A stretch of DNA of 40,636 nucleotides from Candidatus Omnitrophica bacterium CG11_big_fil_rev_8_21_14_0_20_64_10 (GTDB taxonomy: Bacteria > Omnitrophota > Gorgyraeia > 1-14-0-20-64-10): assembly GCA_002787095.1 (NCBI GenBank), contig PCVW01000069.1:12611-53246 (forward strand). Reading direction: 5' to 3'. A program made the translations under genes and the position numbers. The notes under the pieces were generated by a model. It made no database searches. It saw only the letters and a list, made by a program, of their open reading frames with translations, and was not told the origin of the DNA. Positions 2,741 to 34,204 of the stretch are shown here, one piece after another (positions within the stretch are counted from its first letter, which is position 1; each line of letters opens with the position of its first letter).

Positions 2741-2803
2741 CTTTGAAGGAGGGGATCTGTTATGACGAAATGCAACCGTTTCTAAGATAAGGAGGTGACA
2801 ATA

Positions 2804-3214
2804 ATGAAAGGTAAGCAGATGATCTGGGCGGTTCTCGCGGCGGCAGTTGTTTCTATGGGAACGCCCTCAGTTTGGGCGGAACCGACCGCCGAGCAGTTGC
2901 GACAGGCTATTCGCGACTACATCACCCGGCAAGAGCAGCAGACCGGGGCTTTCACGATACCTGACTCCAGGGAGAAGGGGAAACTCCGGGTGCTGACTCT
3001 CGTACGGGTGCATGAACGGGTCGGCAAGACCGGCGATTACTATTACTCCTGCACCGATATGAAGGATGTCGCCGCGGGGAACCTGTTGGATCTGGATTTT
3101 GACGTGGCCGACACCGGTAAGAATCTCAAGGTGGTGGCCGTCCGAATCCACAAGGATGATGGAAAACCCCGCTATACCTACGACGACAACGACAATCTGA
3201 TCCCTGTGGAATGA
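2804..3214 (+). CDS. Exported hypothetical protein
   Basis: GGAGG SD, then an ATG; signal peptide ending VWA; motifs VHER, SCTD, DLDF, IHK..G.PRYTY. Confidence 0.75.
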   Translation: MKGKQMIWAVLAAAVVSMGTPSVWAEPTAEQLRQAIRDYITRQEQQTGAFTIPDSREKGKLRVLTLVRVHERVGKTGDYYYSCTDMKDVAAGNLLDLDFDVADTGKNLKVVAVRIHKDDGKPRYTYDDNDNLIPVE

Positions 3215-3690: not shown

Positions 3691-4512
3691 ATGAGGAGTG
3701 CGCTGTTACTGGGTGGAGGCGGCAGCCGCGGGGCGGTGGAGGTCGGCTTCTATAAGGCCCTCTTTGAGTTGGGTATTCCCGTGGACCGGATCTTCGGGAC
3801 CTCCATCGGGGCCTTGAACGGCGCCTTCATCGCGGCCGGCTTCACGCCGGAACAGCTTGAAGCGCTCTGGATCCGGCTGGAGAAGAAGCCTTTATTCCGT
3901 CGAGACTGGCGTTTCTTGTGGAAGGGCGCGAAAGCGGAGAGTCTCTATCAAGCGGATGGGTTGGTCGACTTTCTGGAATCCGCCCTTCCCGTCAAACGAT
4001 TTGAGGAGCTCAAAATCCCCTTGGTTGTTACGGCTACGGATCTCACGACCTCCGATCCGGTCTACCTCGATTCGGGGGAGCTGCTGCCCGCCCTGTTGGC
4101 CAGCACCGCTATGCCGCCGTACCTGCCGCCCGTGGCGCATCAGGGCCGCCGGCTCGTGGACGGGGGATTTGTGGCGAATGTCCCGATTGGGGAGGCAATA
4201 ACCCGCGGAGCCCAATGCATCCTGGCGATGCTCTGCCATTGCGCTGGAGAGTTGACCCAAATACCCAGGGGTCTTCTGGAAGTTCAGGAGCGCGTCCTGC
4301 GGATCGCCCTGGAGCAGAAATTTCGCCATGACCTGGAGCATTACAAGGACAGAGCCCGGATGATCGTGCTGGAGCCTTGTTTTGATTTACCGTCGGACCT
4401 GCTAAAGATCAGGCAGGTTTCATCCCTGATCCAGCAAGGGTATCAATTCAGCAAAGCCGAACTTTTGAGCCGGATGCCCGACCACTTTCGAGATCATACA
4501 GGGGGTGAGTGA
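3691..4512 (+). CDS. Patatin-like phospholipase
   Basis: GGGGSRG oxyanion loop, GTSIG nucleophile elbow and DGG catalytic Asp motif; strong SD. Confidence 0.92.
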   Translation: MRSALLLGGGGSRGAVEVGFYKALFELGIPVDRIFGTSIGALNGAFIAAGFTPEQLEALWIRLEKKPLFRRDWRFLWKGAKAESLYQADGLVDFLESALPVKRFEELKIPLVVTATDLTTSDPVYLDSGELLPALLASTAMPPYLPPVAHQGRRLVDGGFVANVPIGEAITRGAQCILAMLCHCAGELTQIPRGLLEVQERVLRIALEQKFRHDLEHYKDRARMIVLEPCFDLPSDLLKIRQVSSLIQQGYQFSKAELLSRMPDHFRDHTGGE

Positions 4513-5389
4513 TGAACGCGGAATGTGTCGGCCGGCGGCTCCGCGATGGCGAAAACCGGTGTTGAAAGGGTTTTGTATCCTTCTTGGGGCCGGCGCGCTG
4601 ATTGTATCGGCGCCAGCCGCGGGACAGGCGGCCTCTGAGGAATTCCGCCATGCACTGTACGATCAGATCCTGAAAGAGTACGTCGTTGACGGGCATGTGG
4701 ACTACGCCCGGCTGAAGGAAAACCGGTCCGACCTGGACCAGTACATCGCCTTACTCGCCGGGCTTGAGCCCCACGTCTACGCAATATGGAATACGCCCGC
4801 GAAGATCGCTTTCTGGGTGAACGCCTACAATGCCATCACCCTGAAAGTCATTCTGGATCATTATCCCATTCAACGGGTTTTCTCGCCGGCAACCTTCGTT
4901 TTTCCTGCCAACAGCATCCGCCAGATCCCCGGCGCCTGGGATCGGATCACCCATTCGGTGATGGGCCGGCCGATGACGCTGGATGAGATGGAGCACCGGG
5001 TTCTCCGGAAGGAATTTCAGGAGCCGCGGATTCACATGGCTTTGGTCTGCGCGGCCAAGGGGTGCCCTCCTTTGCGATCCGAGGCATACGAGGGGGAGCG
5101 CCTCGAAGGACAATGGGAAGATCAGGCCCGCCGGTTTCTTTCCGATCCGGCTAGGTTCCGGCTCGACCAGCGAGAGCGCGTGGTCCGGCTTTCATCGATT
5201 TTCCAATGGTTCGGGCAGGATTTCCTCAATGCTTATGGGGCGCCGGAAGGTTTCACAGGACATACCGACATCGAACGGGCTGTTCTGGCGTTCGTCAGCC
5301 GATACCTGAAATCGGAAGATCAAACCTTTCTGAAAGCGGGGAATTACCGGGTGGTTTACGTGGGCTACGATTGGAATCTCAACGAATGA
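4505..5389 (+). CDS. DUF547 domain-containing exported protein
   Basis: AFWVNAYNA, TLDEMEH, EPRIHMALVCAAKGCP, LSSIFQWF and C-terminal YDWNLN. Confidence 0.9.
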   Translation: MSDERGMCRPAAPRWRKPVLKGFCILLGAGALIVSAPAAGQAASEEFRHALYDQILKEYVVDGHVDYARLKENRSDLDQYIALLAGLEPHVYAIWNTPAKIAFWVNAYNAITLKVILDHYPIQRVFSPATFVFPANSIRQIPGAWDRITHSVMGRPMTLDEMEHRVLRKEFQEPRIHMALVCAAKGCPPLRSEAYEGERLEGQWEDQARRFLSDPARFRLDQRERVVRLSSIFQWFGQDFLNAYGAPEGFTGHTDIERAVLAFVSRYLKSEDQTFLKAGNYRVVYVGYDWNLNE

Positions 5390-6819
5390 CCCGGCCCCTT
5401 GCGATTGGCGGGTTAGCCATTCTGGCGGTCTCCGCGGGGTTCTCTTTTTTAAGCCGTTCCTTCCTCTTTGGAACGGGATACCTTGAACGGCCCCTGCTTC
5501 CGTTTGTCGCGTTGTTCGTGGCCGGATCGGCGGCGCTTCTATGGGTCTTCCGGGGTATTTCCTCTCCAAGGCCCCAACCCAACAGTGTTCGCTGGAGGCT
5601 CGCGTGGGTCCTTTTCGTCTCTTTTCTGGCAAGGGGAATCCTGTTTTTTTCCAGCCCCATTCAAGAAGTGGATCCGTACCGGTACCTGTGGGACGGCAAC
5701 GCGGCGCTCCATGGAATCAATCCTTACCGGTACGCCCCCGCGGAGGCCATGGAGCAAACGACCCCTTCTTCTCCGGGGGAAAGGGCATGGCGGGATTCGA
5801 TCCGGTCGAAAGAAGCCCAGAGCGTTTTTGAGCGGATCAGCTATCCGGAAGTCCGAACAATCTATCCTCCTCTTGCTCAAGGCCTGTTCGCTCTGGCGCA
5901 AGGACTGACCCCTTGGTCTCTGCTCGGATGGCGTCTGCTGGTTCTTCTGGCGGATCTGGCCAGTCTGGCGCTGATCATAGGGATCCTTTCCATGGCCCGC
6001 CTGCCCCCGGAATGGGCTCTCCTCTACGGCTGGTCCCCTCTGATCCTGAAAGAGTTCGGCAACTCTCTCCACCTGGACGTTTTTGTTGTCTTGGGTCTCT
6101 GCGGAATGCTCACTGCCCTTCAACGGGGACGCCCGCGGTTGGCGCTCGCGGTCTTGGCGGCCGGAGCGCTGGTGAAACTGGCCCCTCTGATTTTGCTTCC
6201 CCCGTTGTTCGGCTGGGTCTGGAGAGATCAGCCCAGGAGAGCTCTCCAGGGACTGGGATGGGCCTTGGCGCTGATGGGGGCCGGATACCTGCCGTTTTTG
6301 GATGCCGGCGCCCGGGTCTTCGAGGGATTCACGACCTTCGCGGCCCATTGGCGGGTGAACGAAAGTCTCTATGGGTTTTGGAGGGCAGCAGGGTTACCTC
6401 GCGGAGCGCTCTGGGGGTTGATCGCCGCGGCGAGTGTCGGCTACGCCCTTCGATGGATGCGCCAGCCTAAGACCTCTGAAGACCTCCGGCCTTTCTGGAG
6501 AGGATCGATGATGCTGCTGGCCGGGTCTTTCCTCCTTCTCCCCACCGGGAATCCGTGGTACTTCACCTGGATCTTCCCATTTATGGTTCTTGTTCCGGTG
6601 CGGACGCTGAGATGGCTTTCCGGGGCGCTGGGGCTGTACTACTTGGATTTTTACTTCATGTACCGCGGCATGCCGCGCGCCACGGATTGGGTGCGGCTGG
6701 TGGAATACGGATCCACGGCAATGGTGGCTGGCTGGGAGTTATGGCAATGGCGACGGTCTCGATCATTCTTCCCGTCCTCAATGAGCGCGATCTCATTAGC
6801 CGCGCCCTCTCGCATCTGA
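5386..6819 (+). CDS. Multi-pass membrane glycosyltransferase (GT-C, GT87/DUF2029-like)
   Basis: DPYRYLWDG, INPYRYAP, TIYPPLAQ, YGWSPL..KE, H.D, NPWY and many TM helices. Start placed at ATG 5386, overlapping the upstream stop. Confidence 0.8.
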   Translation: MTRPLAIGGLAILAVSAGFSFLSRSFLFGTGYLERPLLPFVALFVAGSAALLWVFRGISSPRPQPNSVRWRLAWVLFVSFLARGILFFSSPIQEVDPYRYLWDGNAALHGINPYRYAPAEAMEQTTPSSPGERAWRDSIRSKEAQSVFERISYPEVRTIYPPLAQGLFALAQGLTPWSLLGWRLLVLLADLASLALIIGILSMARLPPEWALLYGWSPLILKEFGNSLHLDVFVVLGLCGMLTALQRGRPRLALAVLAAGALVKLAPLILLPPLFGWVWRDQPRRALQGLGWALALMGAGYLPFLDAGARVFEGFTTFAAHWRVNESLYGFWRAAGLPRGALWGLIAAASVGYALRWMRQPKTSEDLRPFWRGSMMLLAGSFLLLPTGNPWYFTWIFPFMVLVPVRTLRWLSGALGLYYLDFYFMYRGMPRATDWVRLVEYGSTAMVAGWELWQWRRSRSFFPSSMSAISLAAPSRI

Positions 6820-7574
6820 CTGGTCTCGGAGCGGATGAGATTCTGGTCGTCGACGGGGGCTCGCGGGATGGGACCGACCGGGTGGCCCGGGCCGCTCCGG
6901 GAGTAACCCTGCTCAGGGAGGTCCAAGGCCGGGCGCGTCAGATGAACGCAGGCGTCCGGGCTTCCACGGGAGAGATTCTGCTCTTTGCGCATGCGGACAT
7001 GTCGTTTCCTTCCGGCGCGATCGCGCGGATTCAGGCCGTTATCGGGGAAGGAGCCGCGGGCGGGTGCTTCTTCAAGCGGTACGAGCCCTCCACCCAGCTC
7101 CTTCGGTGGTACGGGTGGGGGCTGAATCATCTGTTTCTGGTCGGCATGCGCCGGATGGTGGGGACGAACGGAATTTTCGTGCGCCGGGATCATTTCTTGA
7201 AGATGGGAGGATTTCCGGAGGTCCCGATCCTGGAAGATCTGATCTTCGCCGATCGATTGCGCCTCCGCGGGCGGTTGGGGGTCGTTCGGCAGCCGGTGAG
7301 TGTTTCCGCCCGCCGGTATGTGAAGGGCGGCATCCTCCGGCAGATTTTGATCAACGGCCGGATCTTTTTGGCGTACGGCTCATCACGGCACCCATCGGAT
7401 CAGTTGCGAATCCTTTATGAATCCCACGCATCCAAAAGAAGGAGGGATGAAGATGAAACGATCGTTCTGGCTGTGCGCAATGGCGGGGATCGCTCTTCTG
7501 AGTTTTGCCGGGACCGGGTCTTGCGCGCAGAACTCGAACAGCGGGAAGTACCTGGTCATCCTGCAGGCCGGTAA
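6741..7574 (+). CDS. GT2 glycosyltransferase, TIGR04283 (arsenosugar biosynthesis-associated)-like
   Basis: SIILPVLNE, VVDGGSRDGT, GRARQMNAG, LLFAHAD, GGFPEVPILED, SARR. The C-terminal ~50 aa overlap the next gene. Confidence 0.85.
   Translation: MAMATVSIILPVLNERDLISRALSHLTGLGADEILVVDGGSRDGTDRVARAAPGVTLLREVQGRARQMNAGVRASTGEILLFAHADMSFPSGAIARIQAVIGEGAAGGCFFKRYEPSTQLLRWYGWGLNHLFLVGMRRMVGTNGIFVRRDHFLKMGGFPEVPILEDLIFADRLRLRGRLGVVRQPVSVSARRYVKGGILRQILINGRIFLAYGSSRHPSDQLRILYESHASKRRRDEDETIVLAVRNGGDRSSEFCRDRVLRAELEQREVPGHPAGR
7408..7436 (+). promoter_or_regulatory. Putative ECF-sigma-type promoter, copy 3
   Basis: GAATCC at 7408 and GCATCCAA at 7428 (20-bp offset), just upstream of the SD of the DsrE-like gene. 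Confidence 0.35.
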
Positions 7575-7908
7575 GGAAAGCCATGAGGGAATGGCGCGGG
7601 CCGTCCACGCGTTCCTGTATGCCCGGGAGCTCAAGGAGCACGGCCATGAGGTTCGGCTCGTCTTCGACGGGGCGGGCACCGAGTGGGCGGAGGAGTTGAG
7701 CAACCCCGCTTTAGAATCCAAGATCAAACCGATGTACGACGAGTTTAAGAAGCTAGGCGTTGAGGAAGTCATCTGCGATTTCTGCGCGGGAGCTTTTGGG
7801 GTAAAGGAGAAACTCCAGGGTCGCCGACTGCCGTTGACCGCCGGGTATGAAGGCCACCCGAGCATCGCCCAATGGGCGGATCAGGGCTACCAGATTGTGA
7901 TCCTATGA
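7453..7908 (+). CDS. DsrE/DsrF-like family protein with signal peptide
   Basis: A.HAFLYARELKEHGHEVRLVFDGAGT, CDFCA (CxxC), YEGHPSI; GGAGGG SD. Confidence 0.75.
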   Translation: MKRSFWLCAMAGIALLSFAGTGSCAQNSNSGKYLVILQAGKESHEGMARAVHAFLYARELKEHGHEVRLVFDGAGTEWAEELSNPALESKIKPMYDEFKKLGVEEVICDFCAGAFGVKEKLQGRRLPLTAGYEGHPSIAQWADQGYQIVIL

Positions 7909-9437
7909 CGATTGTGCCGCCGATGGATGAGAACAACCGGAGGCTGGTTGCGAACGTTCATCCGCCCCAATGGGTCAATCCGGAGCCGTCCGGCCGCTAC
8001 AATCTGGTAGTGATCGGGGCGGGGACCGGCGGCATCGTGACGGCGGCGGGGGCGGCCGGTCTGGGCGCTAAGGTAGCGCTCATCGAAAAGCATCTTCTGG
8101 GAGGAGATTGCCTGAACTACGGCTGCGTTCCTTCCAAGTCGGTGATCCGGTCCGGCCGGGCGGCCGCCGACGCGCGTGGCGCCGGGGCGTTCGGGGTCCG
8201 GGTGCCGGCCGGAACGGAGGTTGATTTTCCGGCGGTCATGGAACGGATGCGACGAATCCGGGCCCACATCAGCCGGCATGATTCGGCGGCGTGTTTGAAG
8301 GAACAAGGAGTGGATGTCTACATCGGCCAGGCCCGATTCTCCGGGCCCGATACCGTCGAGGTGGACGGCAAGACCCTGCGCTTTAAGAAGGCGGTCATCG
8401 CGACCGGCGCGCGAGCGGCGGAGTTGCCGATTCCCGGCCTGAAGGAGGCCGGCACTCTCACGAATGAGACTGTTTTTTCGCTGACGGAACGGCCGCGCCG
8501 GCTGGCCTGTATCGGCGCCGGACCGATCGGCTGCGAGCTGGCGCAGGCCTTCCGGCGGCTCGGCAGCGAGCTGTTCCTTTTTGACGCGGCGCCTCACGTT
8601 CTTATCCGGGAGGATGCCGATGCCGCGGAGATCCTCCAGAAGGTCTTGATGCGGGAGGGGATCCGTCTGATTCTGGACAGCAAGATCCTCCGGATCGAGA
8701 AGAGCCCGGCGGAGAAAATCATCCATTACCAGGTGGGAGGGAAGGCGGAATCGGCTGTGGTGGACGAGATTCTCGTCGGGGTCGGCCGGGCGCCCAACGT
8801 CGAGGGGCTCAACCTGGAGGGGGCGGGGGTGGCGTTCGACACAAAAGCCGGTGTGAAAGTGAACGACCATCTGCAGACCTCCAACGCGCGGATCTACGCG
8901 GTGGGAGATGTCTGCCTGGCCGCGAAGTTCACGCACACTGCCGATGCTTCGGCCCGCATTGTCATCGAGAACGCCCTGTTTCCGAACCTGGGTTTCGTGG
9001 GAAACAAAAAGCTCAGCGCCCTCACCATCCCCTGGTGCACCTACACCGATCCGGAGATCGCCCACGTTGGAATGTACGAAGAGGACGCCCGGAAGGCGGG
9101 AATCCCGGCGGCCACATTCCTCCGGCGTTTCAGCGAGGTTGACCGGGCGCTGGCCGATGGAGAGGAAGAGGGATTCGTGAAAATCCACGTCCGCAAGGGG
9201 ACCGGCCGGATCCTGGGGGCGACGGTGGTGGCCCGGCACGCCGGGGAGATGATGAACGAAATCACCCTGGCCATCGTCCGCGGCATCGGGCTGGGCGCCC
9301 TTTCCTCGGTGATTCATCCTTATCCCACGCAGGCGGAGGCGATCCGGCAGGCGGCGGACGCCTATCAAACGGGTCATCTGACACCGGGTTTGAAACGATT
9401 TCTGGAGAGGTGGTTCGCGTGGAAGCGGCGAGGATAA
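7905..9437 (+). CDS. FAD-dependent pyridine nucleotide-disulfide oxidoreductase (mercuric reductase-like/LPD family)
   Basis: GAGTGG FAD loop, GGDCLNYGCVPSK redox disulfide, GAGPIGCE, HPYPTQAE. No C-terminal CC and no NmerA domain. Confidence 0.9.
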   Translation: MTIVPPMDENNRRLVANVHPPQWVNPEPSGRYNLVVIGAGTGGIVTAAGAAGLGAKVALIEKHLLGGDCLNYGCVPSKSVIRSGRAAADARGAGAFGVRVPAGTEVDFPAVMERMRRIRAHISRHDSAACLKEQGVDVYIGQARFSGPDTVEVDGKTLRFKKAVIATGARAAELPIPGLKEAGTLTNETVFSLTERPRRLACIGAGPIGCELAQAFRRLGSELFLFDAAPHVLIREDADAAEILQKVLMREGIRLILDSKILRIEKSPAEKIIHYQVGGKAESAVVDEILVGVGRAPNVEGLNLEGAGVAFDTKAGVKVNDHLQTSNARIYAVGDVCLAAKFTHTADASARIVIENALFPNLGFVGNKKLSALTIPWCTYTDPEIAHVGMYEEDARKAGIPAATFLRRFSEVDRALADGEEEGFVKIHVRKGTGRILGATVVARHAGEMMNEITLAIVRGIGLGALSSVIHPYPTQAEAIRQAADAYQTGHLTPGLKRFLERWFAWKRRG

Positions 9438-9441
9438 CCCA

Positions 9442-10092
9442 ATGAGGCGAGTAGGAAGATGGCTCCTTGTCGTCGGGCTGCTCGCCGTCGTGATCGGCTG
9501 GTGGTGGCAGCATCGGACCACGATCAACCCGTCTGCACTCAGGGCCTGGATTGCCCAGTTCGGGGCGGCCGCGCCGTTTATTTACGTGGCGCTGTACGCA
9601 GCGAATACCGTGACCCTCCTGCCGCCGATAGGAGTGCTCTCCCTCACTGCCGGTTTGGCGTTCGGGCCGGCGATCGGCTTTCTCGCCATCATGGCGGGGG
9701 CGATGATCGGAACATCACTGACGTTTCTGATCAGCCGGCGGCTGGGGCGCGGGTTCGTTGAACATCGGTTGAAGGGGAGGTTCAAATCGCTGGACGAGGC
9801 GCTCGAGCGGCGGGGATTCGCCACCGTCCTGTTCTTCCGGGTCGTCCCGATCGTTCCCTACGAGGCGCTGAACTACGTTTCAGGCCTGTCCAAGATCCGC
9901 TTTCGGGATTATGGTTTGGCGACTTTCTTGGGCCTTCTGCCGGGCGCGGCGGTGGCCGCCTTCTTCGGGGATTCGCTGACGCAGCCGTTTTCGCCCAAAT
10001 TCATCGCCGCGGTAGGAGCCCTGGTACTTTTGATCGCCATTCCAACCATTTATCTGAAGCTAAGGAGGAAAGTTCCCCATGGAGCTGACTGA
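9442..10092 (+). CDS. TVP38/TMEM64 (DedA/SNARE-associated) membrane protein
   Basis: AGLAFG...G, FLISRRLGR, RVVPIVPYEALNY..GL, T.LGLLPG. Confidence 0.9.
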   Translation: MRRVGRWLLVVGLLAVVIGWWWQHRTTINPSALRAWIAQFGAAAPFIYVALYAANTVTLLPPIGVLSLTAGLAFGPAIGFLAIMAGAMIGTSLTFLISRRLGRGFVEHRLKGRFKSLDEALERRGFATVLFFRVVPIVPYEALNYVSGLSKIRFRDYGLATFLGLLPGAAVAAFFGDSLTQPFSPKFIAAVGALVLLIAIPTIYLKLRRKVPHGAD

Positions 10093-12613
10093 GCGACAGA
10101 GGATCTATGCGCCCCAAGCCGTGCACTGGGAGGAGGACGGGATCCATCTGTTCCTCGATCCGGAATCGCCCCACTGGGTCGCCACGGATGCCCGTGGAGC
10201 GCAGATCATGGGGTGGATCGGTGAGGGGTTGTCGTTCGGGCAGTTCATTCAACGGTACTCATCTGTTCACCGTGTGGGTCCCGCCAAGGCGTGGCTCCAC
10301 GTCCATGATTTCGTCCAGTCGTTGCTACGAGTCGGTTTCGCACGCCTTAAACCGATCGTTCCGACCCCGTACCTGGGGCGCGCCGCCTACGCTCATCCGA
10401 CCGGCTTGAAGGAGTTGTGGTTCCACACCAACAACATCTGCAACCTGGCCTGCACCCACTGCCTGGTCAATTCAGCGCCCTGGGTGCAGGACTGGGGGTT
10501 GCCCACGCCGGAGGTGATGCGCCTCGTCGACGAAGCGGTAGTTCTTGGCGTGGAGCGCTTCTACTTTACCGGCGGCGAACCGTTCATGCGCAAGGACATC
10601 TTTGAACTCATCCGAACCATCACTGAAACCAGGGGGCGCGAGCTCATCGTCCTCACCAACGCTACCCTGTTCAAAGGCGAAAAAGCTGAGGAGGTGAAGC
10701 GCTTGGACCGGAGAAAAGTCCGGTTTCAGGTGAGCATCGATGGGGCCTCGCCGGAAACGAACGACCGGATCCGCGGCAAGGGATCTTTCCAATCGGCGGT
10801 GGAAGGTTTGCGTTTCCTGGCCTCCCTGGGATTCCAGACCTCGATCACCACGGCCGTCACCGCCGCGAATCTTCAGGACCTCCTGGGAATCACCCGCTTA
10901 GGCAGCGAGCTGGGCGTTGCCACCCAGCATCTCATGTGGCTGCACAAGCGGGGCCGGATCGTGGGCCGCGAACGCTTTCCCTCAGCCGAGCAGTTGATCG
11001 AGGTTGTCCGGCAGGTCAAGGCGTTGGCCGGGGAACTGGGGATCGCCGTGGACAACGTCGAATCGATCAAACGCCGGGTCAATGGCCGGCCAGGGGTCAA
11101 ATATGATCTCGGCAACGCCTGCTGGGATTCCCTGTGCGTCTATTCGGATGGAACGGTCTACCCATCGGCGGCGATGGTGAACACAAAGCCGTTGGCATTA
11201 GGTTCTATCAAAGACGGTGGACTTCAGAAGCTCTTGGAAGGATCGCCGGTGGCCGGGGCCTTCCGACAGGCCACGGTGGCGGCCAAGGCGGATCTTCGCG
11301 ACGATCCGTTCCGTTACCTGACAGGCGGCGGCGATCTGGAACATAGTTTCTGGTTTAACCTCAACGGAGAGTCCTCTGCCGCGGCCATTGCTCCTGAGCG
11401 GATGACAGCGCTCTTGACCGGCCCCGATCCGTACTATCCTCTCTACACGGCGATGATCCAGGATGCGATGTGGGATCTGGCACGCGCTGCCCGCGCAGCT
11501 GTCAACCGGCGCTCCGGTTACGACGTCCCTCGCGTCTTGCACGCGATGGGCGATGGGGCGATCCACTGCGCCACGGACGATCTGGCGGTCACCGGCGAAG
11601 TGGACATCCGGACGCTGCATTCGAATTGCGTGCTGGCCTTCGATGTGGACAAACCGCGCAAGCTCGTGCGCGAATTCTACGGGAAGGCGGCCGAGACCCC
11701 GCAGGCGGAACTCTGCTGCCCGACGAAATTCGACGACTTGAGCGTCAGCCACATCCCGAAAGAGGTGATCGACCGGTTCTACGGGTGCGGCTCGCCGGTG
11801 ACGTTGGGAGCGCTTGAGGCCGGGGAAACCTTTGTGGACTTGGGTTCCGGGGCCGGCATCGACTGCTTCATCGCGGCGAAATTCGTCGGACCGGCCGGCA
11901 AGATCATCGGGATCGACATGACGGATGAAATGCTCAAAGTCGCCGATGAGAACCGGCCGATCGTAGCGGCGAATCTCGGTTACGACGTCGTGAAATTCCG
12001 CAAGGGGTATCTGGAGCAGGTTCCTGTGGAATCCAAGTCAGCGGATTTGGTGACTTCCAATTGCGTCGTCAACCTTTCGCCGGACAAACCGAAGGTGTTT
12101 TCTGAAATCTGGCGGATCCTCAGGGATCACGGGAGAACCGTGATTGCCGACATCGTCTCCGCTCTGCCGGTACCCGCACATCTCAAGGTCAATCCTGAAC
12201 TCTGGGGAGAGTGTATCGTAGGGGCGTTGACCGAGGAAGAGTTCTTGGCCCGTTTGGAGGAGGCCGGCTTCTACGGCTTGTCCATCTTGAAGAAGGTGTA
12301 CTGGAAAACAGTCGAGGGATTCGACTTCTATTCGGTGACCGTCCGTGGCTACAAGTTTGAGAAGACCGTCGGGTGCTTATTTCTCGGTCAAAAGGCGGTT
12401 TACCTGGGGCCCATGAAGGCGGTGGTGGATGAGGAAGGGCATCTATTCCCCCGGGACGTGGAGGTGGAAGTCTGCACCGACACTGTCGCCAAACTTTCCC
12501 GCCCACCCTACGCCGGGTCGTTCACCGTCCTGGAGCCCGCCGCTACACGGGTCGAGGTAACTGCTTCCGGACTCCCCCTTAAAACCGCTGAATGCGGGCC
12601 GGGGTGTTGTTGA
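10079..12613 (+). CDS. Radical SAM / arsenite methyltransferase (ArsM-like) fusion protein with N-terminal PqqD-like domain
   Basis: CNLACTHC, FTGGEPF and LTNAT in the rSAM domain. The ArsM half has LCCP, FYGCGSP, VDLGSGAGIDCF, SNCVVNL and LWGECI. The protein ends CGPGCC. Confidence 0.88.
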   Translation: MELTERQRIYAPQAVHWEEDGIHLFLDPESPHWVATDARGAQIMGWIGEGLSFGQFIQRYSSVHRVGPAKAWLHVHDFVQSLLRVGFARLKPIVPTPYLGRAAYAHPTGLKELWFHTNNICNLACTHCLVNSAPWVQDWGLPTPEVMRLVDEAVVLGVERFYFTGGEPFMRKDIFELIRTITETRGRELIVLTNATLFKGEKAEEVKRLDRRKVRFQVSIDGASPETNDRIRGKGSFQSAVEGLRFLASLGFQTSITTAVTAANLQDLLGITRLGSELGVATQHLMWLHKRGRIVGRERFPSAEQLIEVVRQVKALAGELGIAVDNVESIKRRVNGRPGVKYDLGNACWDSLCVYSDGTVYPSAAMVNTKPLALGSIKDGGLQKLLEGSPVAGAFRQATVAAKADLRDDPFRYLTGGGDLEHSFWFNLNGESSAAAIAPERMTALLTGPDPYYPLYTAMIQDAMWDLARAARAAVNRRSGYDVPRVLHAMGDGAIHCATDDLAVTGEVDIRTLHSNCVLAFDVDKPRKLVREFYGKAAETPQAELCCPTKFDDLSVSHIPKEVIDRFYGCGSPVTLGALEAGETFVDLGSGAGIDCFIAAKFVGPAGKIIGIDMTDEMLKVADENRPIVAANLGYDVVKFRKGYLEQVPVESKSADLVTSNCVVNLSPDKPKVFSEIWRILRDHGRTVIADIVSALPVPAHLKVNPELWGECIVGALTEEEFLARLEEAGFYGLSILKKVYWKTVEGFDFYSVTVRGYKFEKTVGCLFLGQKAVYLGPMKAVVDEEGHLFPRDVEVEVCTDTVAKLSRPPYAGSFTVLEPAATRVEVTASGLPLKTAECGPGCC

Positions 12614-12614
12614 G

Positions 12615-13754
12615 ATGCTGCTTCCTTTAGCCCTCCTGGCCGCCGTCCTGTTCCTGGCGTACACCAACGGGGCGAACGACAACTTCAAGGGGGTGGCCAC
12701 CCTGTTTGGCAGCCGCACGACAGGATACGGCAGGGCGATCACCTGGGCGACCGTGACGACGTTCGCCGGCTCCCTGACGGCGGTCTGGTTATCGCAGGGG
12801 CTCATCCATGCCTTTAGCGGAAATGGATTGGTCCCGACAGCTGTGACGGCGCAGCCCGCTTTCCTGTTGGCCGTCGGCCTGGGAGCGGCCTTCACCGTAT
12901 TCCTGGCGACGATCACCGGGTTGCCGATCTCCACGACTCATGCCTTGACCGGCGCTCTCGTGGGCGCCGGCCTCGTCCAGGCGGGTTCGGTCGATTTCGC
13001 CAGACTGGGTCAGAGTTTCTTTCTCCCATTGGCCGTCAGTCCGGTGTTGAGTTTCGCTCTCACGGGCGGCCTCTATCCGATCTTTCGCCTGGTGCGCGCG
13101 CGTCTGGGCATCGAACGGCAGATGTGTCTCTGTATCGGCGGCGGCCGACTCCAGCCCGTGCAGATCCGGCCGGATGGCGCGGCGGTGCTCCAAGCGACGG
13201 GGATGAAGCTCTCCGTGGGCCAGCTCCAAGAGTGTGTTCAGCGGTATGAGGGGCGGGTCATCGGGATCGATGCCCAGTGGATTTTAGACCGGCTTCATTA
13301 TCTCTCGGCCGGCGCGGTCAGTTTCGCGCGGGGCCTGAACGACACGCCGAAAATCGTGGCCCTGCTCCTGGCCGCGCGGGGGCTTGGGCTTAGTCCGTCG
13401 ACCGGGATAGTTGCCGTCGGCATTGCCATGGCGGTTGGCGGACTCCTGAATGCCCGGAAAGTCGCCGTTACCGTGAGCCAGCGGATCACCCCCATGAACC
13501 ATGGGCAGGGGTTTACCGCCAACCTCGTCACCTCCGGTTTGGTCACGATGGCTTCGCTATTCGGTCTGCCGGTGTCAACGACCCACGTCTCTTGCGGATC
13601 TCTCTTTGGGCTGGGGGCCGTTAATCGGACAGCCCAGTGGAAGGTGATTCAATCTATCGTGCTTTCTTGGGTTGCGACCCTGCCGTTGGCTGCAGGGGTG
13701 GGGGCTGTAATCGCTTGGGGAATCGGGGGAGTTTCACCATGGCCCTTTCCGTAA
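12615..13754 (+). CDS. Inorganic phosphate transporter, PiT family
   Basis: NGANDNFKGVATL, GLPISTTHALTGAL, GLNDTPKI, GLPVSTTHVSCGS. Confidence 0.92.
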   Translation: MLLPLALLAAVLFLAYTNGANDNFKGVATLFGSRTTGYGRAITWATVTTFAGSLTAVWLSQGLIHAFSGNGLVPTAVTAQPAFLLAVGLGAAFTVFLATITGLPISTTHALTGALVGAGLVQAGSVDFARLGQSFFLPLAVSPVLSFALTGGLYPIFRLVRARLGIERQMCLCIGGGRLQPVQIRPDGAAVLQATGMKLSVGQLQECVQRYEGRVIGIDAQWILDRLHYLSAGAVSFARGLNDTPKIVALLLAARGLGLSPSTGIVAVGIAMAVGGLLNARKVAVTVSQRITPMNHGQGFTANLVTSGLVTMASLFGLPVSTTHVSCGSLFGLGAVNRTAQWKVIQSIVLSWVATLPLAAGVGAVIAWGIGGVSPWPFP

Positions 13755-15091
13755 TCATCCCGACGCTGAATGAGGCTGGAACCCTTCCATGCCTTCTTGC
13801 CCCATTGCGGGCGGGAGAGGTGCCGGAGGTTCTCGTTGTAGATGGGGGCAGCCGTGACGGCACCCGGGATGTCGCCCGGAGATGGGGCGTGACGTTTCTG
13901 CCGTCAGCCCGGGGGCGAGCGGCGCAGATGAATCGGGGCGCGGCAGTTGCCCACGGCGACTGGCTCTGGTTCCTGCACGCGGATGCGGTTCTCCCGCTGG
14001 ATTGGCAAGATCAACTCCGCCGCGCAATGGAAGATCCGGCTGTCGTCGGAGGCGGTTTCCGGCCCGTCATCGATGCGTCCGGAGCGGGCTACCGGTTCCT
14101 GAATGCGTGGGGGCGGCTGAGAATGAGGGTCCAGCGCAGTTTGTACGGGGATCAGGGGATCTTTGTCCGCCGGGATCTGTTTGAGCGTTTAGGGGGGTTC
14201 GCGGAGATCCCCGTGTGCGAAGATGTCGAGTTCTCCAGACGAATGTGGCGGGCCGGACGGGTGGCGATTCTTCCAGGCCCGCTCCGCACCTCGGCCCGGC
14301 GATGGCGGCGAAACGGCTGGTGGCGAACAGTCACGGAACATACGATCCTGGCCCTCCGCTATGAACTGATGAAGGATAAGCAGCGGTTGCCCACCTATGC
14401 GCTGTTGGCGCCGACCCCGTCCGTTCATCTGGTCGTGGTGGCGAAGGCGCCGATCCCGGGGCGCGTGAAGACGCGGTTGACGCCGCCGCTGTCGGCGGCC
14501 GAGGCCGCTCAGGTGGCCCGCGCGCTGTTGGAAGATACCTTGCGGCGAGTCGGGCGCGTTCCCGGCACTCGGCTGGTTGTCGCGGTGGATCCGCCGGAAG
14601 CCGTCCCGATGATGCGGAAAATCGCTCCAGGAGCTGAGGTCGTGCCGCAAGCCGCGGGAGATCTAGGGGCGCGAATGTCAGCCATCGTCGCGGACCGGTT
14701 CACTCGTGGGGCCTCGGCGGTCATCCTGATCGGCAGCGATCATCCCACTTTGGGGCGGGCGCAGATGGATCAGGCGATCCACTGGCTGCGCGAGGACGGC
14801 GATCCGCTGGTGATCGGCCCGGCCGAGGACGGCGGCTATTACCTGATCGGGCTCACGCGGCCGCACCTTGAGTTGTTCAGCCGAATCTCCTGGAGCGGGC
14901 CTACCGTGCTGCGGGAAACGTTGGCCTGCGCCCTGGACGCCGGTCTGCAGATCCGGCAGCTCTCCGTAGACCGCGATGTGGACACGATCGAAGATCTCGT
15001 TCGGTTGCAGCAACGGCTTTCAGGTGATCATGACGTTGCGCCGGCCACGGCCCGTTGGCTGCAGCGCCGTCGGATTCCAGTGGTAGGATAA
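13739..15091 (+). CDS. Fusion of TIGR04283-like GT2 and TIGR04282/DUF2064 (CofC-like) domains
   Basis: N-half: SVIIPTLNE, VDGGSRDGT, GRAAQMNRGA, FLHAD, YGDQG, TSARRW. C-half: AKAPIPGRVKTRL, QAAGDLGARM, IGSDHP, GPAEDGGYYLIG, DVDTIEDL. Confidence 0.9.
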   Translation: MALSVIIPTLNEAGTLPCLLAPLRAGEVPEVLVVDGGSRDGTRDVARRWGVTFLPSARGRAAQMNRGAAVAHGDWLWFLHADAVLPLDWQDQLRRAMEDPAVVGGGFRPVIDASGAGYRFLNAWGRLRMRVQRSLYGDQGIFVRRDLFERLGGFAEIPVCEDVEFSRRMWRAGRVAILPGPLRTSARRWRRNGWWRTVTEHTILALRYELMKDKQRLPTYALLAPTPSVHLVVVAKAPIPGRVKTRLTPPLSAAEAAQVARALLEDTLRRVGRVPGTRLVVAVDPPEAVPMMRKIAPGAEVVPQAAGDLGARMSAIVADRFTRGASAVILIGSDHPTLGRAQMDQAIHWLREDGDPLVIGPAEDGGYYLIGLTRPHLELFSRISWSGPTVLRETLACALDAGLQIRQLSVDRDVDTIEDLVRLQQRLSGDHDVAPATARWLQRRRIPVVG

Positions 15092-15099
15092 CAACCGTC

Positions 15100-15870
15100 A
15101 TGTCTCACTCGACTGTATTGATCGTGCAAGTCACCGTTTTGGGCTTTTGTCTCTGGCTCGAATCCGTCGTCCCCGTATTTCTTCGGCAGCCGGGGCCACG
15201 GATGCGGCACGGCTCCCGCAACATCGCCATCGGGTTGGTCAACGGCGCCGTCCTCACCGCCGGTTTCTCCGGCTTGGTTTTTGCAGCGGTTCACTGGGGC
15301 GGGGCACATCCGGTCGGCGTCCTTCATTGGATCACGCTACCAGCATGGTCCGAACGGCTGATCGGATTCATCGTTTTTGACCTGTGGATGTACCTCTGGC
15401 ACCGGGCCAATCACGGCCTCCCGTGGTTCTGGCGATTCCACCGGGTGCATCACAGCGATCTGGCGGTGGACGTGACCACGGCCCTGCGATTCCACTTAGG
15501 CGAAATGGTGCTCTCAACCCTCTTACGGCTGGCGGTGATCCCGCTGCTGGGAATCACCCTGGGCGATCTGCTCCTCTACGAGATGATCCTTCAGCCGGTT
15601 ATCTACTTCCACCACAGCAACATCGCCCTGCCTGAAGCGTGGGACCGCCTGATGCGCCTGGCGGTCGTTTCCCCCAATATGCACCGGGTGCACCATTCGG
15701 ACATCCCCTCAGAAACCAATTCCAACTACGCCAGCATCTTTTCTTTCTGGGACCGCTTCGGGCGCACGTACCGTCGGCGGGACATCCGGACGATCCGGTA
15801 CGGGCTGAAGGAATTCCTCGAGCCTCGGTGGCAAACGCTGATCGGGCTGCTGAGGATGCCTCTGGCGTAA
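15100..15870 (+). CDS. Sterol desaturase / fatty acid hydroxylase family protein
   Basis: His boxes HRANH, HRVHHSD, FHHSN, HRVHHS; NYASIFSFWDR. Confidence 0.9.
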   Translation: MSHSTVLIVQVTVLGFCLWLESVVPVFLRQPGPRMRHGSRNIAIGLVNGAVLTAGFSGLVFAAVHWGGAHPVGVLHWITLPAWSERLIGFIVFDLWMYLWHRANHGLPWFWRFHRVHHSDLAVDVTTALRFHLGEMVLSTLLRLAVIPLLGITLGDLLLYEMILQPVIYFHHSNIALPEAWDRLMRLAVVSPNMHRVHHSDIPSETNSNYASIFSFWDRFGRTYRRRDIRTIRYGLKEFLEPRWQTLIGLLRMPLA

Positions 15871-15891: not shown

Positions 15892-16785
15892 TCAGAAGGT
15901 GGTGCGGGCTCCGACCACCACGTTGTAGTCGGTGCCCAGCTCGTTTCCGTTTAAAGATTCTACGATGGGCACCTGAACGGAGGCCTCCAGCAGCCACCGG
16001 GAAGTGACGTACTGGACGCCCGGCGAGAGGAACAAGGTGTAACCTCCCGAGTCCTTGATCGTTCCTCCGGAGCGGTGCTTGGTCTGCCAGACGCCGTTGA
16101 GCTCCAGGACGGCGTGAAGGGCACGTGGAGTGGACCATTCTGCCGATTCGGCCGGCCATACCCGAACCCAAGCGCCGGTGTTGTGCTGAAAGAAATCCCC
16201 GAACTGAAGGTCATCATGTCCGGTGTTCACCTGGTAGACCAGATCCTGGCTGATCTCATACCATTGAGTCTGCCGGGTAAAGACGATTCCGGCCAATGGA
16301 TCCCAAGAGCCGGAGCCGAGGCGAACGGCGGGCGGCAAACGGCCTTGTGCGTCGGATTCATCGTCTTCTCCGGTTGGGAGCTTCAATCCGCCCAGAAGGG
16401 CAAACCGGGTCGTTGCCCCGGGCGCATCTTTCCGCCAGAGGCGTGCTTTAAGAAACAGCTTGAGGTCTCCGATTCCGCTGGCCTCCCGGCTGACTCGTTG
16501 GCCGCCGCTCACGGTGCGCAGATCTTTGTCAAGGTATGGCACCGCCAGGAACCCCGCGGTCGACTCGGTGATTCCATGGACGACGACCAGCTTCACCGCA
16601 TCCACCGTCATGGAGCGGTTCTGGTCGGTGGGATCATCCCCTTTGCGGGTTCGGGAGTACTGCGTCCGCAGGATCGTCTGTCCCTTGGCCGGATTCAAAG
16701 CGATGTCCGTGTTGATGGCTGAAAACGCCGGCCCGCCGTGAAGCAGAAACGCCAACCCCAGGATAAGGATGGCGTTCCTCCTCAC
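15892..16785 (-). CDS. Putative outer-membrane beta-barrel 'transporter' (phenol MetA-pathway-like)
   Basis: Signal peptide; GIGDL, GLKLPTG, LGSGSWD, LELNG, LSPGVQY; C-terminal Phe. Confidence 0.7.
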   Translation of the reverse strand: MRRNAILILGLAFLLHGGPAFSAINTDIALNPAKGQTILRTQYSRTRKGDDPTDQNRSMTVDAVKLVVVHGITESTAGFLAVPYLDKDLRTVSGGQRVSREASGIGDLKLFLKARLWRKDAPGATTRFALLGGLKLPTGEDDESDAQGRLPPAVRLGSGSWDPLAGIVFTRQTQWYEISQDLVYQVNTGHDDLQFGDFFQHNTGAWVRVWPAESAEWSTPRALHAVLELNGVWQTKHRSGGTIKDSGGYTLFLSPGVQYVTSRWLLEASVQVPIVESLNGNELGTDYNVVVGARTTF

Positions 16786-17336
16786 GGTTTGACCTCCAGG
16801 ATCGTCTCAATCTCCATCGCCGGAGGCAACCCTTGGTGCTCATGGACCGTCCCGGAAACTTTCACCAGGGTGCGGCTCGACTGCCAGCCGGCGAGGCGGC
16901 GTTCCAGGGCCGGATCCCCAATCGTGTGTTCAGGTGTCAGGGTGGTCTTGCTCTCCTCCTTGAACAGGAGGAACTGCTGGCCGGTCCCGCGTGTCTCCAG
17001 CACCGGATGGTCTTCCCACTGTGCAACCGTTCCAATGGCGGTCAGCCGGATCGCCCTTAAGGTGAAACCGGTGTCCGCCACGGCCTGTCGGAATTGGGCA
17101 AGATCGACTGATTGCCCTGGTTTGACTCCCATTCGGACAACGCCCTCTTTGTAGTTCGTCTGAAGGGAGCCTGCGGCCCCGAGCTTCTTGAGCGGCTTCT
17201 CGATGTTGAACACGCAGAACGGGCAGGATAGCCCGTCGATGCGAAGCTCCACCTCCGTCACTTCGGCCCATGCGGTCTGCCCTCCCATGTCCAAGAGGGT
17301 TGTCAGGAACCCGATGAGAAGCAGTTTTCTCAGCAT
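16782..17336 (-). CDS. Exported heavy-metal-associated (HMA) domain protein
   Basis: Signal peptide ending AWA; IDGLSCPFC metal-binding loop; AVADTGF; an extra C-terminal domain. Confidence 0.85.
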   Translation of the reverse strand: MLRKLLLIGFLTTLLDMGGQTAWAEVTEVELRIDGLSCPFCVFNIEKPLKKLGAAGSLQTNYKEGVVRMGVKPGQSVDLAQFRQAVADTGFTLRAIRLTAIGTVAQWEDHPVLETRGTGQQFLLFKEESKTTLTPEHTIGDPALERRLAGWQSSRTLVKVSGTVHEHQGLPPAMEIETILEVKP

Positions 17337-17342
17337 TGAATG

Positions 17343-17813
17343 TCACCTCCTCTCTTTTGCTTTTTGGACGGCCCCCGTGACATTCCCCAGGCAGCAGGAA
17401 CCTTGTGGATTAGTGATTTCACAGTAGCAGTTACCGGCCTTCACCTGCGCCTTGATCTGTTCAACCACCGTGCTTTTGCCGGTTACCTGAATCTCAGCGC
17501 GGATCTTCTCAGGCGTCCAGCCAAAACAGTAACAGACGGGCGCTGAAGGATCGGCGGGCTCTTTGAGCCCGACCTTTACCGCCAGATCTTCTTCTCGGAA
17601 CAAGATCTCTCCAGGCCGGAAGTAGATCACGTCACAGGCGGGGGTCCGGCAAAAGCAGAACTCCTCCTGGTTCGGGATGTGCGGGCGGGCTTCCGGTTTC
17701 AGCAAGGCGCCCAAGGTGATCCGCTTGACCGGCTTGCCCAGGGCCCCGCATGCAGGGCATTTCGCTGGACCGCAGATCGTGGGGGGATGAAATTCGCAGC
17801 AGGCCTCGCTCAC
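17343..17813 (-). CDS. CopZ N-terminal-like zinc/Fe-S metallochaperone (Csac_0668-like)
   Basis: GTG start overlapping the merT stop; CPACG, FCRTPACDVIYF, VCYCFG, CYCEITNPQGSCCLGNV. Confidence 0.85.
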   Translation of the reverse strand: MSEACCEFHPPTICGPAKCPACGALGKPVKRITLGALLKPEARPHIPNQEEFCFCRTPACDVIYFRPGEILFREEDLAVKVGLKEPADPSAPVCYCFGWTPEKIRAEIQVTGKSTVVEQIKAQVKAGNCYCEITNPQGSCCLGNVTGAVQKAKERR

Positions 17814-18160: not shown

Positions 18161-18166
18161 GGTGGC

Positions 18167-20280: not shown

Positions 20281-20352
20281 GCCGGCGTAGCTCAATGGTA
20301 GAGCACCGCTTTCGTAAAGCGGGGGTTGGAGGTTCAATCCCTCTCGCCGGCT
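20281..20352 (+). tRNA. tRNA-Thr(CGT)
   Basis: Cloverleaf: acceptor GCCGGCG/CGCCGGC, D arm GCTC/GAGC, anticodon stem CCGCT/AGCGG with loop TTCGTAA, T arm GGAGG-TTCAATC-CCTCT. CCA is not encoded. Confidence 0.96.
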
Positions 20353-34200: not shown

Positions 34201-34204
34201 TGGC

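Follow-up and report, generated by a model that had tools for sequence, protein, structure and literature searches.

A SPASM/RRE-type radical SAM-ArsM fusion in a candidate arsenosugar-type gene cluster of Omnitrophota

The stretch of DNA analyzed here (hereafter the window) comprises 40,636 nucleotides of contig PCVW01000069.1 (contig C46, positions 12611-53246) of Candidatus Omnitrophica bacterium CG11_big_fil_rev_8_21_14_0_20_64_10, a genome bin of 1.73 Mb in 73 contigs that is 92% complete and whose closest relatives carry the Omnitrophota label. Pfam and NCBIfam scans place eleven genes, all on the + strand between positions 3691 and 15870, in one overlapping operon (Table 1), whose central product is a protein with a radical S-adenosylmethionine (SAM) half fused upstream of an ArsM-type methyltransferase half. 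With the starts chosen, neighbouring genes overlap by up to 128 bases or lie up to 10 bases apart, the starts of the GT-C-paired GT2 and DsrE genes being uncertain, and the downstream border is a convergent outer-membrane-protein gene. A sequence-only reading of the same DNA had described this co-directional, tightly coupled block and proposed that it makes an organoarsenic glyco- or lipid conjugate; all eleven genes of the listed families were recovered, and searches with TIGR04282, TIGR04283 and PF13847 gave scores above cut-off in the window, the second TIGR04283 copy falling 1.5 bits short. We regard the operon as more than a chance association because its families are found again both near ArsS and, in other phyla, near relatives of the fusion. 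Near-identical DNA was found only in groundwater-metagenome runs, three of which contain 45-100% of the sampled words, and no RNA run matching positions 9400-13800 was listed among the public runs. Promoter and terminator sites between positions 3000 and 17000 were no commoner than in shuffled sequence, and an Rfam scan of the window returned only one tRNA and one fluoride riboswitch, both distant from the operon.

The ArsM half of the fusion, at about residues 518-844, has a SAM-dependent methyltransferase fold of the Methyltransf_31 type and matches the solved ArsM chains 5evj (E 6.7e-38), 4fr0 and 8xt7, with E values from 7e-38 to 3e-32. Its cysteines C546/547, C570, C662 and C712 are invariant in 13/13 sequences. 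The last three lie in YGCG, SNCV and GEC motifs and align to both of the solved ArsM chains compared; C547 pairs with a cysteine of 5evj only, the alignment with 4kw7 beginning at residue 555. The corresponding arsenic-site and disulfide-relay cysteines of CmArsM are C44, C72, C174 and C224. The ArsM half shares 39% identity with an ArsM linked to ArsS (E 1e-75), and the fusion ends in an invariant C-x-P-G-C-C tail.

In the radical SAM half, the cluster-binding type motif C121-x3-C125-x2-C128 (CX3CX2C) is invariant in 32/32 sequences, and this motif together with much of the half is invariant across phyla. A structural model built from these 32 sequences (pLDDT 91) predicts a three-stranded, three-helix domain at residues 15-85, a radical SAM core and a SPASM-like domain, and residues 1-90 are predicted to form an RRE/PqqD-like winged helix; the Pfam PqqD family is matched by 4/22 sampled relatives (P0260, P0264, P0266 and P0273) and not by the window protein. 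The best match among solved structures is CteB (5wgg_A; Z 30.4, rmsd 4.8, 408/440 residues, model residues 12-471), and further matches include anSME (Z 29.1), ChlB (28.0), SuiB (27.2), SkfB (27.1), TigE (Z 25.4, aligned over model residues 7-483), the sugar-nucleotide enzymes BlsE (Z 24.1) and DesII (Z 20.5), and viperin. Beyond the core, only C353, C497 and C517 are conserved, compared with seven cysteines in SPASM enzymes; neither a seven-cysteine SPASM motif nor a four-cysteine twitch motif was found, and the Pfam SPASM model scores 16.5 against a cut-off of 21.5 bits (E 0.011). The radical SAM half is of a SPASM/RRE-type lineage and is not ArsS.

Such a domain could also act on something other than arsenic, with the ArsM-like half methylating antimony, selenium, tellurium or a peptide thiol and the RRE-bearing radical SAM half modifying a peptide. 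The RRE-like N-terminal domain, the fold resembling CteB, SuiB and SkfB, and the PqqD matches among the relatives would all suit this role, and DedA proteins and disulfide reductases, both encoded in the operon, are linked to selenium and tellurium handling. Set against these points, the SPASM cysteines are mostly lost, whereas all four cysteines of the ArsM arsenic site are invariant. Among 248 small open reading frames (ORFs) within 2 kb of fusions, no family was found in more than two loci, and those pairs came from close relatives, although a distant or very short precursor would escape this search. The gene context is moreover common to ArsS, whose arsenic chemistry has been demonstrated (bioRxiv 10.64898/2026.04.29.721666). 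We therefore consider a non-arsenic substrate highly improbable. A reading of the fusion as a maturase of ribosomally synthesized and post-translationally modified peptides (RiPPs) was set aside, as no small ORF shared by more than two loci was found within 2 kb of it.

Relatives of the fusion are widespread. A word-index search returned 1622 of them, the best 120 of which are 796-923 residues long and have both domains, and 437 of 500 candidate stretches were confirmed, giving at least 437 matching stretches among 185,579 species genomes (one genome per species). The best 73 loci span at least eight phyla and include Omnitrophota, Acidobacteriota, Gemmatimonadota, Nitrospirota, Scalindua, Chloroflexota, Elusimicrobiota and Thermodesulfobacteriota. 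We counted neighbours within 10 kb of the fusion in these loci using tblastn with the window proteins (E 1e-8), and separately in the 42 loci flanked by 5 kb or more on each side (full-flank loci; Table 1). The sequence-only reading had made its case depend on the co-occurrence of the lipid-related genes with the fusion in other genomes; DedA, GT-C and DUF547 do recur in this way, but patatin and the FA_hydroxylase are seldom found there, patatin lying in place only in L005 and L008 (79-82% identity). L005 also holds a match to the small secreted protein encoded upstream of the operon. The genomes G214, G223, G240 and G243 (loci L026/L075, L040, L062 and L068) are flagged as unpublished, and L041 and L072 belong to that deposit series too; when the five loci of the flagged genomes are set aside, the counts among the remaining 68 are PiT 37, GT2/DUF2064 25, reductase 19, DedA 19, GT-C 17 and DUF547 10.

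An unbiased clustering of 1076 ORFs around the fusions added further neighbours. A purine-nucleoside phosphorylase is encoded directly 3' of the fusion in L057 (NF006054, 330 bits against a cut-off of 218), and the clustering puts the same phosphorylase directly after the fusion in L020 and L025. PstS-like and ABC genes lie 3' of the fusion in L021 and L069, and the layout in Scalindua consists of an FMN reductase, thioredoxin-like proteins, PiT, a 503-residue GT2, DUF3179, GT-C and the fusion. We also sampled 22 of 139 representatives related to the radical SAM half (E 1e-30 or better) for their domains. One protein, P0281, unites radical SAM, ArsM and TIGR04283, and 8/22 combine radical SAM and ArsM with DUF5714; the reverse order is seen in 2/22, TusA replaces ArsM in 2/22 and the radical SAM domain stands alone in 4/22. 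DUF5714-bearing relatives of about 1000-1079 residues, with this domain following radical SAM and ArsM, are P0252, P0268, P0283, P0287, P0289, P0297 and P0310, and P0287, the sole one scanned with NCBIfam, scores 143 bits on the model for the metal-binding double selenoprotein MbdU.

Table 1. Features of the window, and recurrence of the encoded proteins around relatives of the fusion and around Omnitrophota ArsS genes
Feature	Position	Strand	Family evidence	Fusion loci (of 73)	Full-flank fusion loci (of 42)	ArsS loci (of 20)
DUF255 thioredoxin-domain/GlcNAc-2-epimerase-like protein	32..1831	+				
SCO1/SenC-CusF fusion	1828..2712					
Secreted 139-aa protein, signal peptide ending ...SVWA	2795..3214	+	without Pfam/NCBIfam family	7		7
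Small secreted His/Met-rich protein, 89 aa	3275..3544	+	without family			2 (L109, L124)
Patatin-like phospholipase, operon gene 1	3691..4512	+	PF01734, 133 bits	6		0
DUF547 protein, N-terminal signal/anchor	4523 (or 4505)..5389	+	PF04784, 85 bits	11	8	6
GT-C membrane glycosyltransferase (GT87/MptA_B-like), 477 aa	5386..6819	+	ESM Atlas	17	9	3
GT2, TIGR04283 type, GT-C-paired copy	about 6741..7574	+	TIGR04283, 180.5 bits (cut-off 182)			
DsrE-like small protein	about 7447..7908	+	PF02635, 39 bits	2		1
FAD/NAD(P)H pyridine-nucleotide disulfide oxidoreductase	7905..9437	+	NF004991, 810 bits (cut-off 620)	22	16	10
DedA/VTT membrane protein, paired with reductase	9442..10092	+	PF09335, 95 bits	22	17	10
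Radical SAM/ArsM fusion, 844 aa	10079..12613	+	Pfam and NCBIfam			
Radical SAM half of fusion	10079..11650	+	PF04055, 90 bits			
ArsM half of fusion	11630..12613	+	PF13847, 103 bits (cut-off 27)			
PiT/PHO4 oxyanion transporter, start one base past fusion stop codon	12615..13754	+	PF01384, 205 bits	42	22	6
TIGR04283 GT2 fused to TIGR04282 (DUF2064)	13739..15091	+	232.6 bits (cut-off 182); 186 bits (cut-off 134)	29	20	17 (TIGR04283/04282)
FA_hydroxylase-superfamily di-iron membrane oxygenase, final operon gene	15100..15870	+	PF04116, 96.6 bits	4		6
MetA-pathway-type outer membrane protein (from 15892), HMA-domain protein, CopZ-N-type Fe-S metallochaperone, MerR	15892..18786	-				
tRNA-Thr(CGT)	20281..20352					
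Tyrosine integrase	23411..24622					
ArsR-family regulator	24746..25090					
ArsR-family regulator	25145..25528					
Two Proton_antipo_M, NADHdh, 49-kDa and 20-kDa subunits with ferredoxin domains	32209..39441	+				
Fluoride riboswitch	39746..39809	+	RF01734, 52.4 bits (cut-off 34)			
ORF	39759..40244		without Pfam family			
ORF	39923..40636		without Pfam family			

When the neighbourhoods of true ArsS genes in the same phylum are examined, the same set of families appears. In a sample of 201 Omnitrophota genomes, the full-length fusion is confined to the family of the window genome (4/5 family genomes), and true ArsS is found in 21/201 genomes and in 0/5 of this family; the ArsS proteins proper score 380-454 bits on the ArsS model TIGR04167. 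We used the window proteins to search the surroundings of 20 ArsS genes, in 19 Omnitrophota genomes and over at most 20 kb each, and TIGR04283/04282 proteins, the reductase and DedA were the most frequent matches (Table 1). The reductase gene always lies beside that for DedA, in fusion and ArsS loci alike. In L109, NCBIfam models gave 451 bits for ArsS, 187 for TIGR04282, 224 and 171 for two TIGR04283 proteins and 504 for the reductase; this locus additionally encodes PiT, ArsM, an OlsE-like hydroxylase and a GH1-like glycosidase, and has GT-C followed by GT2 as in the window. ArsS adjoins ArsM, and the two are fused in G073, G135 and G145. These ArsS-ArsM fusions (L119, L123 and L122:9216-11225) are single frames of 669-683 residues with radical SAM first and ArsM second. 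The gene order in G145 is TIGR04282, TIGR04283, reductase, DedA and ArsS-ArsM (669 residues), of which the window shares the succession of reductase, DedA and fusion. The GH1-like glycosidase occurs inside the ArsS clusters L109:10816-12099 and L114:5506-6801, at 296-324 bits against a cut-off of 478, and is absent from the window operon; it is a candidate for adenine removal or transglycosylation in those clusters.

The co-occurrence of these genes across genomes follows the same lines. ArsS is absent from the fusion-bearing genomes of several phyla (0/50, or 0/46 without the four flagged genomes), and no ArsS above cut-off was found in the window or elsewhere in the 92%-complete genome. TIGR04282, by comparison, scores above cut-off in 49/50 fusion genomes (45/46 without the flagged ones). 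Within the phylum sample it is present in 26 genomes: in 4/4 with the fusion, 19/21 with ArsS and 3/176 with neither, which amounts to 23/25 genomes with ArsS or the fusion. Of the three genomes with neither, G042 encodes ArsM next to TIGR04282 close to the start of a contig, and the completeness of G170 is 69%. Among 14 control genomes, ArsS and TIGR04282 occur together, and at all, only in Synechococcus elongatus. The relatives are not independent and we therefore state no probability for this pattern, which spans more than 20 genera. It is apparent that a second, unrelated radical SAM lineage occupies the position of ArsS.

Since the accessory genes and their local order are those of ArsS loci, a shared product class is the simpler explanation, and the absence of ArsS from 50/50 fusion genomes fits a role of the fusion as its stand-in. 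We therefore suggest that the operon is a variant of the arsenosugar-type cluster in which a SPASM/RRE radical SAM domain, fused upstream of ArsM, replaces separate ArsS and ArsM proteins, a reading that we judge to be evenly poised between right and wrong. The organoarsenical, arsenosugar-type assignment made in the sequence-only reading gains from both lines of evidence, the accessory genes shared with 20 same-phylum ArsS/ArsM loci and the tracking of ArsS or the fusion by TIGR04282; taken as a whole, that interpretation is partly supported.

A different account of the same operon is detoxification only, in which the fusion just methylates arsenic with the radical SAM half as an accessory, PiT and the thiol reductase deal with phosphate and arsenate, and the glycosyltransferase and lipid genes belong to ordinary envelope synthesis or phosphate-starvation lipid remodelling and are co-regulated. 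The links to phosphate are strong, PiT being found in 42/73 fusion loci and PstS-like or ABC genes following the fusion in L021 and L069, and genes for copper and other metals lie on both sides of the operon. Patatin, an OlsE-like hydroxylase and glycosyltransferases, furthermore, are of the kinds employed in phosphate-sparing lipid remodelling. This account has to contend with the near confinement of TIGR04282 to genomes with ArsS or the fusion, with the protein fusions that join radical SAM/ArsM to TIGR04283 and GT-C to a TIGR04283-like GT2, and with the invariance of the radical SAM motif and much of its half across phyla; there is also no efflux pump in the cluster. On balance, we hold detoxification alone to be very unlikely.

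Several observations weigh against the arsenosugar-type reading itself. The radical SAM half had been taken as ArsS-like in the sequence-only reading, and this did not survive: it scores 62.5 to 65.1 bits on TIGR04167 against a cut-off of 300, over model positions 6-151 only, and its alignment with true ArsS covers only the generic core (31% over 150 residues, 48 bits). The nearest structures are hydrogen-abstracting peptide maturases and sugar or nucleotide enzymes, so that the fold does not imply that 5'-deoxyadenosyl is added to arsenic. On no NCBIfam ArsM model does the ArsM half reach the cut-off, with 222.4 against 263 bits on the best model (NF008823), 196.9 against 500 on the arsinothricin ArsM model (NF040538) and 148.8 against 400 on NF038099. 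In 7/42 full-flank loci no accessory gene lies within 10 kb of the fusion, all seven genomes having TIGR04282 elsewhere, and the link to the nucleoside phosphorylase is made by 3/73 loci. TIGR04282 and TIGR04283 both carry the NCBIfam label 'arsenosugar biosynthesis glycosyltransferase', a name that rests on co-occurrence; no experiment on either family was found in our full-text search. The relatives compared are also non-independent, and their genomes are metagenome bins with many short contigs.

The structural likeness and the weak ArsS score also bear on a neighbouring possibility, namely that the fusion has the same organoarsenical role but another radical chemistry, forming a different C-As bond with no transfer of 5'-deoxyadenosyl. 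The enzyme might carry out an ArsL-like transfer of a 3-amino-3-carboxypropyl group, or it might abstract hydrogen from a sugar nucleotide, a polyprenyl sugar or a lipid, after which arsenic bound to ArsM would capture the carbon radical; an arsenic glycoside or lipid of a new class would then result. The hydrogen-abstracting SPASM fold with BlsE and DesII among its matches, the 197 bits of the ArsM half on the arsinothricin ArsM model, the lack of relationship between the radical SAM half and ArsS past the core, and the other partners seen in the relatives (DUF5714/MbdU-like in 8/22, TusA in 2/22) are all in keeping with such a route. The accessory genes common to ArsS loci with identical local order, the lack of ArsS in all 50 fusion genomes and the nucleoside phosphorylase after the fusion in three loci point the other way, and we consider this alternative unlikely.

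The accessory proteins lend themselves to some further characterization. The GT-C protein had no match in local Pfam or NCBIfam profile scans; its ESM Atlas features place it with GT87/MptA_B clusters (feature score 0.99, TM 0.89), most of the homologues listed carry PF26314, with PF09594 also found, and its first outer loop has an Asp-x-x-Arg-Tyr motif conserved in 16/16 sequences. Proteins of 706-723 residues in which GT-C is fused to GT2 have a TIGR04283-like GT2 in 6/6 cases (149-161 bits), mirroring the GT-C-then-GT2 order of the window, and no GT-C relatives of 836-2385 residues were found. The TIGR04282 domain (PF09837, 109.5 bits) matches the solved structures 3cgx (E 6e-18) and CofC 6bwg (E 0.002) and, to judge by its sequence, is CofC/MobA-like. 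The FA_hydroxylase protein scores 57.6 bits on the OlsE model against a cut-off of 475. The DUF547 protein has invariant FWxNAYNA and C-A-x3-C-P motifs in its alignment; its model (pLDDT 84.5) gave no informative solved relative, the best Foldseek match having an E value of 0.87 and a wide VIA-align search a best Z of 6.2 over 86 residues, within background, and the papers listed in a literature search mention DUF547 in gene lists only. Patatin, DsrE and FA_hydroxylase are conserved poorly or only moderately in the cluster.

The disulfide reductase has a CLNYGC redox pair and is without a C-terminal cysteine pair. It is not MerA (TIGR02053, 383.9 against a cut-off of 454.45 bits). Polyprenyl-phosphate flippases of the DedA subfamily COG0586 are marked by conserved acidic residues in the first re-entrant helix and two arginines in the second. 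In 20 cluster DedA proteins, none of the columns with 90% or higher conservation is Asp or Glu, and R99, R103 and R133 are conserved. According to PMC10127716, pairing or fusion of DedA with a pyridine-nucleotide disulfide reductase (PF07992/PF02852) is a trait of COG0398 and not of COG0586, and COG0398 lacks the flippase residues, with polyprenyl-phosphate flipping deemed unlikely. The sequence-only reading had cast DedA as a flippase for lipid carriers; the reductase pairing is typical of COG0398, and the cluster DedA is probably not a polyprenyl-phosphate flippase, as far as its residues indicate.

For the arsenosugar-type reading, a route through the cluster can be outlined. ArsS is described as placing a 5'-deoxyadenosyl radical on a methylated arsenical, after which adenine is removed (bioRxiv 10.64898/2026.04.29.721666, PMC12159101). 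Here, arsenate would be imported by PiT, and As(III) might enter through an aquaglyceroporin encoded elsewhere in the genome. The intact motifs of the ArsM half suggest that it would bind As(III) on its four cysteines and methylate it. The labile trivalent methylarsenical could then be handed to the fused radical SAM half for a further C-As bond, most likely through addition of the 5'-deoxyadenosyl radical of SAM as in ArsS, a step to which the gene context points. C353, C497 and C517, at the usual sites of the SPASM clusters, are candidate holders of the arsenical, and the reductase with DedA, perhaps together with DsrE and DUF547, may keep thiols or arsenic reduced.

Adenine could next be removed by a nucleoside phosphorylase to give arsenoribose-1-phosphate; besides the phosphorylases beside fusions elsewhere, the window genome encodes a phosphorylase of this kind on another contig (C56, 177 bits). 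The nucleotidyltransferase-like TIGR04282 domain would activate the arsenoribose as a nucleotide sugar, and the inverting TIGR04283 GT2 would transfer it. The second TIGR04283-like GT2 and the GT-C may pass it, by way of a lipid-linked donor, to an acceptor that lies outside the cytoplasmic membrane, and the FA_hydroxylase and patatin could tailor the lipid part. We infer the radical chemistry, the product and the lipid steps, and uptake, reduction, flipping and lipid tailoring, being assignments by family name only, are the weaker elements of the scheme. The two secreted proteins encoded just upstream of patatin, outside the block as first delimited, may also be part of the cluster, since they recur with such clusters.

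The remaining arsenic genes of the genome bear on an argument made in the sequence-only reading, that the lack of ArsB, Acr3 and ArsC in the window favours biosynthesis. None of these was found among the 42 ORFs scanned, and the window holds two ArsR-family regulators. Contig C61 (L081:1465-2654), however, has an aquaglyceroporin gene (MIP, 179 bits) adjoining one for an ArsC-like low-molecular-weight phosphatase (TIGR02691, 140 against 174 bits), which by family would form a small module for arsenate reduction with an arsenite channel, and the argument is weak because this pair exists on another contig. Neither Acr3 nor a glutaredoxin-type ArsC was found in the 92%-complete genome. A Pfam match to ArsB on contig C64 was rejected because the protein is a CitMHS transporter, scoring 198 bits on that family and 53 on ArsB.

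Other metal-related genes surround the operon (Table 1). A SCO1/SenC-CusF fusion gene lies upstream, and the four metal genes on the minus strand downstream recur beside the fusion in L007, and in part also in L048. The DUF255-type family encoded at the start of the window immediately precedes the fusion in L010-L013 and lies close to it in L019 and L060. Farther downstream, the tRNA-Thr gene is followed by family-less ORFs, the tyrosine integrase gene and the two adjacent ArsR-family regulators, and positions 20281-25528 may be an integrated element with metal(loid) regulators. The fluoride riboswitch lies just 5' of the two ORFs at the end of the window and overlaps their start. The module of two antiporter-type subunits, NADHdh and the 49-kDa and 20-kDa subunits is Mrp/complex I-like and resembles an energy-converting hydrogenase-like or Mbx-like complex.

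Among known systems, the window is closest in content to the ArsS and ArsM arsenosugar system of cyanobacteria (TIGR04167, NF038099, TIGR04282 and TIGR04283), with which it shares an ArsM-type methyltransferase, a radical SAM enzyme, TIGR04282 and TIGR04283; ArsM, TIGR04282 and TIGR04283 are found in one neighbourhood in the window, and ArsS is not present. With the Omnitrophota ArsS loci it further shares PiT, the disulfide reductase, DedA, DUF547, GT-C, FA_hydroxylase and the 139-residue protein. Unlike ArsS, the radical SAM half adds RRE-like and degenerate SPASM domains and is covalently joined to ArsM. The ArsS-ArsM fusions of G073, G135 and G145 have the same domain order, and in G145 neighbours in the same order, but their radical SAM domain is true ArsS (410-424 bits), whereas that of the window is about 200 residues longer and of another lineage.

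A second comparison is the arsinothricin pathway of Burkholderia gladioli and Pseudomonas aeruginosa, where the radical SAM enzyme ArsL makes a C-As bond alongside ArsM, as proposed for the window. The description of this pathway (bioRxiv 10.64898/2026.04.29.721666) has ArsL holding arsenic by a few cysteines near its C-terminal part, which are comparable to C353, C497 and C517 of the window fusion, and has ArsL and ArsM sufficing as unfused proteins, with no TIGR04282/04283 or GT-C partner named there. The RRE-bearing SPASM peptide maturases (CteB, SuiB, SkfB and TigE) share the three-part architecture and fold of the radical SAM half, but the latter has three cysteines in place of the seven-cysteine motif, no conserved precursor gene was found near it and it is fused to ArsM. 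Pairs of a GT-C with a GT2 that makes polyprenyl-phosphate sugars are familiar from mycobacterial Ppm1 with MptA/MptB. Like these, the GT87/MptA_B-like GT-C of the clusters adjoins or is fused to a GT2; unlike them, the GT2 of the window is of the TIGR04283 type, and its lipid-linked donor would be an arsenoribose.

A full-text literature search, which covered few subscription journals, returned no SPASM-type radical SAM/ArsM fusion, no test of TIGR04282 or TIGR04283 and no wider accessory set, so that an earlier description is possible. The two works it found to mention TIGR04282 use the name as an annotation label only, and PMC5552862 mentions only an ArsM-SelD fusion.

To our knowledge, the steps after ArsS have long been open, with no enzymes known for adenine removal, aglycone attachment or the synthesis of arsenosugar phospholipids. 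The gene set that recurs around both ArsS and the fusion therefore supplies candidates for the later steps of arsenosugar and arsenolipid synthesis: TIGR04282, TIGR04283, GT-C, the reductase-DedA pair, DUF547, PiT, the di-iron hydroxylase and the 139-residue secreted protein. Several of these links are protein fusions and go beyond mere neighbourhood.

A bolder reading joins these elements. The fused domain would be a third independently evolved class of radical SAM enzyme forming C-As bonds, after ArsS and ArsL, derived from RRE peptide maturases, with a three-cysteine arsenic site in place of its lost SPASM clusters and with surface arsenic as its outcome; we offer this as a doubtful, speculative proposal. 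ArsM would feed the domain directly, the CxPGCC tail possibly being a swinging arsenic carrier that is docked by the RRE-like domain. Arsenic would be taken up deliberately through PiT, and the arsenoribose, activated by TIGR04282/04283, would be loaded onto a lipid and placed by GT-C on an envelope lipid or glycan. If the radical SAM half does make a C-As bond, arsenic enzymology would be wider, and organoarsenical synthesis would reach uncultured bacteria of groundwater, of soil and of the anammox group, which would affect arsenic speciation in aquifers. Should the bolder reading be true, arsenic would be built into the structure of the cell surface in groundwater Omnitrophota, Scalindua, Gemmatimonadota and Acidobacteriota.

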